Shown: positions 53,553-55,994 of the stretch, in pieces
How the letters are laid out: the number at the start of each line of letters is the position of its first letter
How positions within the stretch are numbered: the first letter of the stretch is position 1
Source of the DNA: a virus
Lineage: Duplodnaviria > Heunggongvirae > Uroviricota > Caudoviricetes
DNA: 55,994 nt
Direction: 5' to 3' (one strand)
IMG/VR virus record: IMGVR_UViG_3300025009_000058
The notes under the pieces: generated by a model
Told to the model about the DNA's origin: nothing
The model's database searches: none
What the model saw: the letters and a program-made list of their open reading frames with translations, nothing else
Translations under genes and position numbers: made by a program

Positions 53553-55994
53553 TTATCCAATTGTTATAGTAGGTCTTTCATAGACCGCTAATGCTGATGT
53601 AGTTTTTGCAATTCCTAATTCTTGGTTCAAATTTCCAGCTGTAGTTGGTGGTGTAGATGTTACTCCACCCGCTGTACTTAAGAAATATATTGTACCTACT
53701 GTTAAACTTGTTAACTGGTCATTTAGTCCTGTTAGTTGATAAAATCCTCCACTATTTCCGCTTGTTACAGCCGTTAATACATAACCATGAGCAGGTTTAG
53801 TATTATCAGTATTATCTGCTTTACGCATATTAATTGTACCAGCATTTGAATAAAGATTAACAAAGTTTCCAGCTGCTAAAGTTTCTCCTGCTACAATTGT
53901 TATAGCATTTGTGCCACTTGGTCCGCATAAGCCAATAGGACCACAATTACCTGTTAAGCCACAAACTCCTTGAATTCCTTGTGAGCCTTGTGGACCACAA
54001 ACTCCTTGAATTCCTTGTGCTCCTTGAGGGCCACATAGGCCTTGAATTCCTTGAGCTCCTTGAGGGCCACAATTTCCTGTTACTCCTTGAATTCCTTGAG
54101 GGCCACAATTGCCTGTTAAGCCACAAACTCCTTGAATTCCCTGTGCTCCTTGAGGGCCACAATTACCTGTTAAGCCACAAACTCCTTGAATTCCCTGTGC
54201 TCCTTGAGGGCCACAATTGCCTGTTACACCTTGAATGCCTTGAGGGCCACAATTGCCTGTTACACCTTGAATGCCTTGAGGGCCACATAGGCCTTGAATT
54301 CCTTGAGCTCCTTGAGGGCCACATAGGCCTTGAATTCCTTGAGCTCCTTGAGGGCCACATAGGCCTTGAATTCCTTGAGCTCCTTGAGGGCCACAATTGC
54401 CTGTTAAGCCACAAACTCCTTGAATTCCCTGTGCTCCTTGAGGGCCACATAGGCCTTGAATTCCTTGAGCTCCTTGAGGGCCACATAGGCCTTGAATTCC
54501 CTGTGCTCCTTGAGGGCCACAATTTCCTGTTACTCCTTGAATTCCTTGAGGGCCACAATTGCCTGTTAAGCCACAAACTCCTTGAATTCCCTGTGCTCCT
54601 TGAGGGCCACAATTGCCTGTTACACCTTGAATGCCTTGAGGGCCACAATTGCCTGTTACACCTTGAATGCCTTGAGGGCCACAATTACCTGTTACACCTT
54701 GAATGCCTTGAGGGCCACATAGGCCTTGAATTCCTTGAGCTCCTTGAGGGCCACATAGGCCTTGAATTCCTTGAGCTCCTTGAGGGCCACATAGGCCTTG
54801 AATTCCCTGTGCTCCTTGAGGGCCACATAGGCCTTGAATTCCCTGTGCTCCTTGAGGGCCACATAGGCCTTGAATTCCTTGAGCTCCTTGAGGGCCACAT
54901 AGGCCTTGAATTCCTTGAGCTCCTTGAGGGCCACAATTTCCTGTTACTCCTTGAATTCCTTGAGGGCCACAATTGCCTGTTAAGCCACAAACTCCTTGAA
55001 TTCCCTGTGCTCCTTGAGGGCCACAATTACCTGTTAAGCCACAAACTCCTTGAATTCCCTGTGCTCCTTGAGGGCCACAATTGCCTGTTACACCTTGAAT
55101 GCCTTGAGGGCCACAATTGCCTGTTACACCTTGAATGCCTTGAGGGCCACATAGGCCTTGAATTCCTTGAGCTCCTTGAGGGCCACATAGGCCTTGAATT
55201 CCTTGAGCTCCTTGAGAGCCACATAGGCCTTGAATTCCTTGAGCTCCTTGAGGGCCACATAGGCCTTGAATTCCTTGAGCTCCTTGAGGGCCACAATTAC
55301 CTGTTAAGCCACAAACTCCTTGAATTCCTTGTGCTCCTTGAGGGCCACAATTGCCTGTTACACCTTGAATGCCTTGAGGACCACATAGGCCTTGAATTCC
55401 TTGAGTTCCTTGAGCTCCTTGAGGGCCACATAGGCCTTGAATTCCCTGTGCTCCTTGAAGGCCACATAGGCCTTGAATTCCCTGTGCTCCTTGAGGGCCA
55501 CAATTACCTGTTAAGCCACAAACTCCTTGAATTCCCTGTGCTCCTTGAGGGCCACAATTACCTGTTACACCTTGAATGCCTTGAGGGCCACATAGGCCTT
55601 GAATTCCTTGAGCTCCTTGAGGGCCACATAGGCCTTGAATTCCTTGAGCTCCTTGAGGGCCACATAGGCCTTGAATTCCCTGTGCTCCTTGAGGGCCACA
55701 ATTGCCTGTTACACCTTGAATGCCTTGAGGGCCACAATTACCTGTTACTCCTTGAATTCCTTGAGGGCCACAATTACCTGTTAAGCCGCATAAGCCGATA
55801 GGGCCACATAATCCTTGAATGCCTTGAATTCCTTGTGTGCCTTGAGCTCCACATAAGCCTTGAGGGCCACAATTACCTGTTACTCCTTGAATTCCTTGAG
55901 GGCCACAATTACCTGTTAAGCCGCATAAGCCGATAGGGCCACATAATCCTTGAATGCCTTGAATTCCTTGTGTGCCTTGAGCTCCACATAAGCC
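53553..55994 (-). CDS. giant Cys-collagen fibre with C-terminal cement/head-fibre-like domain, 5'-truncated (at least 813 aa)
   Basis: The frame of ORF 53553-53828 continues upstream through ...GPIGLCGPSGTNAITIVAGETLAAGNFVNLYSNAG and remains Gly-X-Y to the window edge (GGC TTA TGT = GLC at 55994). Confidence 0.85.
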   Translation of the reverse strand, partial: GLCGAQGTQGIQGIQGLCGPIGLCGLTGNCGPQGIQGVTGNCGPQGLCGAQGTQGIQGIQGLCGPIGLCGLTGNCGPQGIQGVTGNCGPQGIQGVTGNCGPQGAQGIQGLCGPQGAQGIQGLCGPQGAQGIQGLCGPQGIQGVTGNCGPQGAQGIQGVCGLTGNCGPQGAQGIQGLCGLQGAQGIQGLCGPQGAQGTQGIQGLCGPQGIQGVTGNCGPQGAQGIQGVCGLTGNCGPQGAQGIQGLCGPQGAQGIQGLCGSQGAQGIQGLCGPQGAQGIQGLCGPQGIQGVTGNCGPQGIQGVTGNCGPQGAQGIQGVCGLTGNCGPQGAQGIQGVCGLTGNCGPQGIQGVTGNCGPQGAQGIQGLCGPQGAQGIQGLCGPQGAQGIQGLCGPQGAQGIQGLCGPQGAQGIQGLCGPQGAQGIQGLCGPQGIQGVTGNCGPQGIQGVTGNCGPQGIQGVTGNCGPQGAQGIQGVCGLTGNCGPQGIQGVTGNCGPQGAQGIQGLCGPQGAQGIQGLCGPQGAQGIQGVCGLTGNCGPQGAQGIQGLCGPQGAQGIQGLCGPQGAQGIQGLCGPQGIQGVTGNCGPQGIQGVTGNCGPQGAQGIQGVCGLTGNCGPQGAQGIQGVCGLTGNCGPQGIQGVTGNCGPQGAQGIQGLCGPQGAQGIQGVCGPQGSQGIQGVCGLTGNCGPIGLCGPSGTNAITIVAGETLAAGNFVNLYSNAGTINMRKADNTDNTKPAHGYVLTAVTSGNSGGFYQLTGLNDQLTSLTVGTIYFLSTAGGVTSTPPTTAGNLNQELGIAKTTSALAVYERPTITIG
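53915..55994 (-). repeat. collagen-coding tandem repeat array (about 690 codons)
   Basis: Shuffled 36-bp (GPQGAQGIQGLC; GPQGIQGVTGNC) and 54-bp (GPQGAQGIQGVCGLTGNC) units; 135-bp-period repeat at 55781-55859 / 55916-55994. Confidence 0.9.

Follow-up and report, generated by a model that had tools for sequence, protein, structure and literature searches.

The minus strand at one end of the IMG/VR virus record IMGVR_UViG_3300025009_000058, a 55,994-nucleotide stretch of Caudoviricetes DNA that was analysed as a whole and is referred to here as the window, probably holds at least the 3' two-thirds of a virion fibre gene (positions 53553-55994). The assembled part of this gene encodes an unbroken array of collagen-type Gly-X-Y triplets that leads directly into a compact C-terminal domain, here called the bead, which is homologous to a neck-fibre protein of Anabaena phage A-1(L) and which lies at the extreme C-terminus in nearly all of its relatives. 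We favour, at a probability of roughly 0.6, the view that the product is a very long trimeric virion fibre in which the N-terminus, missing from the contig, would be the anchor and the bead would form the distal end.

An open frame of collagen triplets that ends in a bead

On the minus strand, positions 53553..55994 are open in one frame over all 813 codons up to the point where the contig stops; no start codon was found in this frame, and its 5' side is open at the window edge. The open reading frame (ORF) called by program within it (53553..53828, minus strand) has only 91 codons and begins at an internal ATG inside the bead domain. Because the alignments of homologs start 25-27 residues upstream of the methionine of this ORF, the call cuts the real domain short. 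The remaining frames of the minus strand are broken by stop codons, and repeats of this kind commonly leave a long open frame on the opposite strand as well, here one of 606 residues. Recoding, or a wrong choice of frame, was considered and rejected, since the cysteine codons are ordinary sense codons, the frame is the sole open one on its strand, and it runs directly into a domain with thousands of homologs.

The collagen array itself (53907..55994, minus strand) comprises 232 uninterrupted Gly-X-Y triplets (696 residues), with its 5' end lying beyond the contig end, and the long run of glycine at every third residue is that of a collagen triple-helix repeat of the PF01391 type. Its composition is highly skewed. 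The X positions are occupied mostly by Ile (51), Pro (50), Leu (41), Ala (33), Asn (26) and Val (25), the Y positions by Gln (136, or 59%), Cys (65, or 28%) and Thr (26); all 65 cysteines are in Y, proline occurs solely in X (22% of these positions), and there is not a single charged residue (the count of Asp, Glu, Lys, Arg and His being 0). Successive cysteines are separated by 4 triplets in 46 cases, by 2 in 15 and by 5 in 3. The array is pieced together from a small number of units, namely GPQGAQGIQGLC (19 copies), GPQGIQGVTGNC (15), GLTGNC (11) and GPQGAQGIQGVC (9), and the same peptide triplets are written with differing codons, which indicates that the constraint acts at the protein level. 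Literature searches for Cys-rich phage collagens and for collagen head fibres returned general background only, and a stalk chemistry of this kind, uncharged and with Cys in 28% of Y positions, appears to be new, no description of it having been found.

The bead occupies 117 residues (53556..53906, minus strand), and the stop codon of the fibre gene (53553-53555) follows directly after it. An AlphaFold model built with 97 relatives in the alignment has a pLDDT (predicted local distance difference test) score of 97.4 and shows two small beta-barrels, i.e. a double barrel of the beta-tulip or decoration type. When this model was compared with the PDB by Foldseek, the top match was the N-terminal domain of gp8.5, the base of the phi29 head fibre (E 1.7e-3, template modelling (TM) score 0.65), followed by the decoration proteins of HFTV1, Adjutor, BB1, TW1, Pam3 and T1, with lambda gpD/SHP lower in the list. 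In VIA-align the top 12 matches were all capsid decoration proteins, with Z scores of 8.0-10.8 over the whole domain (HFTV1 10.8, Adjutor 9.6, Pam3 9.3; TW1 reached 7.2). Judged by its model, then, the bead has the capsid decoration or cement fold, even though its sequence identity to the solved cements is as low as 10-18%. Sequence profiles tell little of this kinship: the bead domain has no match in Pfam at E<=10, no model in Pfam or NCBIfam covers the family, and the cement family PF09956 is matched weakly by 5 of 98 bead relatives, with a best E value of 0.0025 that is below the cutoff.

Much of this had been anticipated by an earlier note on the same DNA, made from its letters and a list of its ORFs. 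The claim that the gene extends far beyond the 91-residue stub and stays open and Gly-X-Y to the window edge agrees with the 813 codons and 232 triplets described above; the cement-like or head-decoration-like character of the C-terminal domain has now been recovered by Foldseek, the check that the note had itself proposed, and by VIA-align; and the arithmetic behind a collagen rod of about 200 nm or more is sound, given that 696 residues at 0.286 nm each amount to 199 nm.

A widespread domain that caps proteins at their C-terminus

The bead belongs to a large family (phrog_4368 and phrog_12121; E 2e-14 against the former), with 2225 relatives at E<=1e-3 and 755 at E<=1e-10. A typical member is ~170 residues long and consists of ~55 N-terminal residues followed by the bead. 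Of 155 relatives, 147 have the bead as their extreme C-terminus, as do 42 of the 49 that are at least 250 residues long. Those long carriers that have recognisable domains are tail-tip proteins with PF13550 (Phage-tail_3) or Rcc01698_C. Proteins of this type attach to the tail with their N-terminal part, which favours the N-terminus as the anchor of the fibre discussed here as well. The ~55-residue N-terminal hairpin region, or 'plug', that usually stands directly before the bead is replaced at that place by collagen in the fibre protein, whose true N-terminus lies beyond the contig. Collagen precedes the bead in a minority of the relatives too, and several short ones show the layout of the fibre in miniature, i.e. 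an N-terminal segment, 7-26 collagen triplets and a bead (P0110 with 26 triplets, P0147 with 15, P0085 and P0072).

Several other arrangements were seen in the family. Seven relatives (P0011, P0020, P0044, P0063, P0086, P0101 and P0150) carry two tandem beads in one polypeptide, and in one of them, P0086, collagen lies between the two. A 227-residue protein on an ENA contig of 28,995 bp (P0003) combines a signal peptide and a copper-amine-oxidase N-terminal domain (PF07833) with the last ~90 residues of the bead; the bead portion is 97% identical and starts in the middle of the first barrel. The protein arose either by shuffling of domains in nature or as a chimera made by the assembly. In the small siphovirus 11b of Flavobacterium, the gene for a 168-residue bead protein (AJ842011.2, 14394-14900) sits among the genes for head-tail connectors, with the capsid gene on one side and the tail genes on the other, a position that would suit a neck or collar fibre in that phage as well. 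Contigs of viruses, metagenomes and genomes were also searched for relatives with the bead plus its junction to the collagen, and viral contigs in addition with the 328-residue neighbour (see below), but this yielded nothing usable; one candidate locus, L001, was rejected as a chance match that lacks a collagen gene.

The best matches in annotated phages are cyanophage proteins whose labels differ: some are called fibres of the capsid or of the neck, others decoration protein D or hypothetical. Only gp81 of A-1(L), the nearest characterised relative, has been studied, and the bead is 47% identical to it over 114 residues (BLASTP, E 1e-31); the C-terminal bead of A-1(L) gp82 is matched more weakly. 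In A-1(L), ~14 trimers of gp81 form the beads of a neck fibre of ~100 nm (PMC10966104; Yu et al. 2024, Nat Commun 15:2654). The trimers are joined head to tail, each next one docking by its N-terminal hairpins on the preceding, proximal bead. On one side of the chain is gp82, which holds on to the neck with its N-domain and has another bead as its C-domain; on the other is the distal gp80 (PMC10966104). Other Anabaena phages have longer versions (bioRxiv 10.64898/2026.02.14.705889). The two systems share a homologous C-terminal domain of ~115 residues that ends the protein, a gene that lies in a small fibre operon (gp82-gp80 in A-1(L)) apart from the head and tail modules, and a fibre length of the order of the tail (~100 versus 105 nm in A-1(L), at least 199 versus an inferred ~250 nm here). 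The differences are just as clear. Whereas gp81 is a protein of 168 residues, made of hairpins and a bead, that attains length by the non-covalent chaining of ~14 trimers, the present fibre has one collagen polypeptide with one bead; neither a gp82N-like neck adaptor nor a gp80-like carbohydrate-binding protein was found in the window; and A-1(L) is a myovirus, unlike the siphovirus-like phage considered here. In the relatives with tandem beads, the bead chain exists in covalent form. Phage fibres of the collagen type were known before, as was the bead domain; what is new is their combination at such a scale, and that one polypeptide takes the place of a chain of beads.

Which end of the fibre is attached to the virion?

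The arrangement that we prefer can be outlined as follows. The missing N-terminus would carry the anchor, on the neck, on a capsid vertex or on the tail; the Gly-X-Y array, with its 232 or more triplets, would fold into a triple helix of the collagen type and so give a stalk at least ~200 nm long; and the 117-residue C-terminus would be a trimeric bead of the beta-tulip type at the distal end, which could nucleate and register the three chains. That the bead is distal seems probable. By analogy with gp82C and gp81 of A-1(L), it may also offer a socket for the N-terminal hairpins of a next component, and three Kelch-like propeller proteins encoded downstream are conceivable as its socket partners or as receptor binders. 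A fibre of this kind would presumably serve adsorption. The earlier comparison of the rod with the length of the tail is borne out in so far as the 1675-residue ORF in tape-measure position (25106-30133, minus strand) implies, at ~0.15 nm per residue, a tail of ~250 nm, although only its position marks this ORF as a tape measure (neither PHROG nor Pfam gives a match for it). Such similar lengths would suit a fibre that extends as far as the tail tip and meets the cell surface along with it.

Several observations weigh against this arrangement. The N-terminus of the fibre lies beyond the contig end, so that the anchor is not visible. The solved structures that share the bead fold are almost all capsid-bound, and a PDB sequence search with the bead family profile gave 0 matches at E<=10, i.e. 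no structure has been solved within the family. GenBank calls cyanophage homologs of gp81 'capsid fiber protein' or 'head decoration protein D', and the bead chain of A-1(L) rests on AlphaFold models fitted to a 6-Å map. Finally, when a hidden Markov model (HMM) of the plug region of the family was run against all 101 ORFs of the window, nothing significant was found (best E 0.29), and the supposed docking of the propellers on the bead therefore depends only on a short motif, shared by the three paralogs and visible by eye.

Could the fibre be attached the other way round? This is what the earlier note had proposed: trimers of the bead would dock on the 3-fold or quasi-3-fold sites of the capsid, from which the collagen would project outward with its N-terminus distal. 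The proposal draws on the fold matches to decoration proteins and to the base of the phi29 head fibre (Z 8.0-10.8, TM up to 0.65), on the weak matches of 5 of the 98 relatives to PF09956, on the naming of a homolog as capsid fibre in two GenBank records, and on the precedent of a collagen-like capsid decoration in gp12 of SPP1 (PMC7602432). Yet we consider it unlikely, and C-terminal docking on the capsid probably wrong. In the beta-tulip cements, the capsid is bound mainly via a free N-terminal arm, the Dec-arm (PMC7602432). The bead has no such free arm, its N-terminal end being continuous with 696 residues of collagen, and the stalk therefore enters the domain at the very part by which cements bind, which disfavours a capsid-docked C-terminus. 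In sequence, moreover, the bead stands at 10-18% identity to the solved cements as against 47% to the neck-fibre bead gp81, and some of its relatives cap tail-tip proteins.

The comparison with phi29 gp8.5 (PDB 6QYY, 6QVK; PMC6542822) is instructive in this respect. The resemblance extends to the double beta-barrel base (VIA Z 9.4, root-mean-square deviation 2.8 over 101 residues) and, if the bead is a trimer as we suppose, to the joining of a trimeric base to a long trimeric fibre. The two share 14% identity, and their polarity is opposite: gp8.5 begins with its base, and the fibre, a helix-turn-helix supercoil, emerges from the C-terminal end of that base, whereas here the collagen is on the N-terminal end of the domain, fibre first and base last. 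Furthermore, the capsid protein contributes a strand of its Ig domain that completes the base of gp8.5, and no such partner is evident in the present case.

The phage also has a cement protein of its own, encoded between a protease/scaffold-like gene and the major capsid gene (36778..37329, minus strand), and this likewise counts against a role of the bead as capsid cement, because the slot beside the capsid gene is already filled. The homologs of this 183-residue protein carry PF09956, and its model, with the decoration fold at the N-terminus, matches the decoration proteins of HFTV1, Pam3 and FCWL1 from residue 2-3 onward with Z scores of 9.3-11.4. Its C-terminal tail consists of 14 triplets in a perfectly periodic (GLC-GPx)7 pattern that is missing from the seven homologs found (135-143 residues), and the capsid would therefore be studded with short Cys-rich collagen stubs. 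These leave their base C-terminally, as does the fibre of gp8.5, and hence with a polarity opposite to that of the long collagen. Profile-profile comparison (hhalign) found no relation between the bead family and the family of this cement (probability 0.2%). The bead thus shares its fold class with the Phage_cement_2/DUF2190 (PF09956) proteins and with TW1, Pam3, HFTV1 and lambda gpD (Z 7-11), but unlike the PF09956 cements it has no Pfam match, no free N-terminal arm and no place beside the capsid gene; the true member of that family in this phage is the product of 36778-37329.

How secure is the length of the array?

Within the assembled array there are exact repeats, 334, 158 and 138 bp long. 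The longest of these is present at 54019-54352 and again at 54883-55216 (together spanning 54019..55216, at an offset of 864 bp), and the last 273 bp of the contig (55722..55994) are a perfect 135-bp unit repeated twice, from which it follows that the contig broke inside a repeat and that the assembled copy number could be either collapsed or expanded. The copy number between the two 334-bp copies is insecure from short reads, and the length of the array is accordingly not secure. The earlier figure of at least 690 residues of collagen therefore stands as a description of what was assembled, 696 residues without a break, and is not a reliable measure of the natural stalk. The reading frame is less vulnerable. 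Every repeat offset in the array is a multiple of 9 bp, so that the frame would survive collapse and expansion alike.

It could be argued, then, that the gene is real and its giant unbroken length an artefact of an expanded, collapsed or chimeric assembly, the true stalk being much shorter or different. The internal and terminal repeats just described lend themselves to this explanation, as does the failure to find any full-length product that ends in this particular bead among 5.8 billion proteins (searched at 204-2000 and at 1424-4065 residues), despite the fact that the same phage has been assembled many times (its cement protein occurs on 26 contigs, and the contigs measure 120.6-123.5 kb); probably every assembly of the phage breaks in the collagen array. 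A second Cys-rich collagen fibre protein of the phage (40263..44192, minus strand; 1309 residues) adds to the doubt. This sister protein, which scores 295 bits on PF01391 and matches PHROG families of collagen-like minor tail proteins and tail fibres, has cluster mates of 1183, 1204, 1225, 1246 and 1267 residues, i.e. in steps of 21 residues or one 63-bp unit, and two further members of 743 and 764 residues; these cluster mates come from ~121-kb contigs of other samples. The array copy number is therefore either truly polymorphic or unstable in assembly. The same protein, on the other hand, has two collagen blocks of ~107 triplets each that have been assembled repeatedly, which argues that long arrays are native to this phage. 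Since, in addition, the frame of the fibre gene is intact throughout, and its array is not one looped unit but an interleaving of at least four unit types with synonymous variation, we regard an artefactual length as unlikely.

A less likely possibility: the bead as a receptor-binding tip

That the bead is itself the terminal receptor-binding knob of an ordinary long tail fibre at the baseplate, in need of no further partners, is a minor variant of the distal-bead arrangement and, we think, the least probable of these alternatives: the bead is indeed the last domain in 95% of its relatives, tail-tip proteins included, and the plug HMM finds no partner for it in the window, but in the only case studied it is a connector, with the distal carbohydrate-binding module residing in another protein (PMC10966104), its identity of 40-58% across phages of cyanobacteria, Stenotrophomonas, roseobacters and Flavobacterium would be unusual for a receptor-binding tip among such different hosts, and 28 kb separate the gene from the window's tail module (16504-25104).

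Genomic setting

The window covers the arm that carries the structural and lysis genes in an uncultured, siphovirus-like phage of ~121 kb. Read along the minus strand, the collagen gene is followed by the gene for the 328-residue protein, the propeller genes together with a glycosyltransferase-like gene, a lysis cassette and the gene for the 1309-residue fibre, and then by the protease/scaffold-like gene, the gene for the 183-residue cement, the HK97-type major capsid gene (35515-36705, minus strand), the tail tube gene (32128-33321, upstream of the 1675-residue ORF; it matches PF18906), the 1675-residue ORF and the genes for large tail-tip proteins. No sheath gene was seen in the window, and the genes for portal and neck fall outside it. 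The collagen gene is ~17 kb from the major capsid gene and, with the genes for the coiled-coil protein and the propellers, makes up a separate operon upstream of the lysis genes.

The first of these neighbours encodes a helical or coiled-coil protein of 328 residues (52574..53560, minus strand; phrog_1409, function unknown), and the 8-bp overlap of its gene with the collagen stop places the two in the same operon. The three propeller proteins are paralogs of ~310-325 residues (51599-52573, 50656-51594 and 49063-49998, all on the minus strand), and the small glycosyltransferase-like gene (50008-50634, minus strand) is found among them, within 49063..52573. Their repeats are of the type ID-Y-(V/I)-T-I-A-T-x-G-N-x-x-D-F-G-D-L; by eye, the paralogs have in common a hairpin-like N-terminal motif (such as IPLVGKDGKI), which is the motif referred to above, and an identical C-terminal SGN. 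In the ESM Atlas the propeller family is virus-only and unnamed. The propeller and the 328-residue protein had no match by tblastn among 50,697 phage records, nor did the segment 50000-53950 match phage records by blastn.

The lysis cassette includes an endolysin gene (45970-46470, minus strand; phrog_7) whose product carries a hydrophobic segment resembling a signal at its N-terminus. Ahead of this gene lie those for two membrane or coiled-coil proteins (46451-47323, minus strand), one of them with weak matches to Rz-like spanins, which suggests a Gram-negative host.

With respect to other collagen fibres of phages, such as the 'collagen like minor tail' proteins of PHROG, the prophage collagens of E. 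coli O157 (PMC3368898) and gp12 of SPP1, the present protein has in common a Gly-X-Y stalk flanked by globular trimerising domains, and it differs from them in its unusually long run of at least 232 unbroken triplets, in the absence of charge and in the placement of Cys in 28% of Y positions. One may speculate further, and we offer this as a doubtful extension of the distal-bead arrangement, that the fibre works as a 'fishing line': a collagen whisker of at least 200 nm would be held together by a ladder of Cys and Gln in Y positions, with neither hydroxyproline nor charge pairs; the bead would be a universal adaptor that presents the three propellers as interchangeable receptor binders; and a Cys-collagen code would cross-link the fibre, the cement and the 1309-residue protein across the virion.

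Implications

What does a single broken fibre gene mean for the bead family and for the phages that carry it? The family is large (more than 2000 representatives at 50% clustering), has no Pfam or NCBIfam model and has been the subject of one experimental study, and its domain stands at the end of fibres and of tail-tip proteins in phages whose hosts differ widely. That the same cyanophage protein is labelled capsid fibre, neck fibre or decoration protein D is an annotation problem, and it matters for annotation that a cement fold alone does not mean docking on the capsid. Since gene callers miss genes of this kind and assemblies break in them, such fibres are probably under-counted in viromes. 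The stalk, finally, is an extreme among natural collagens. If it folds, it would provide a test case for a triple helix that forms with neither hydroxyproline nor salt bridges, and it may be a virion fibre that is sensitive to redox conditions.

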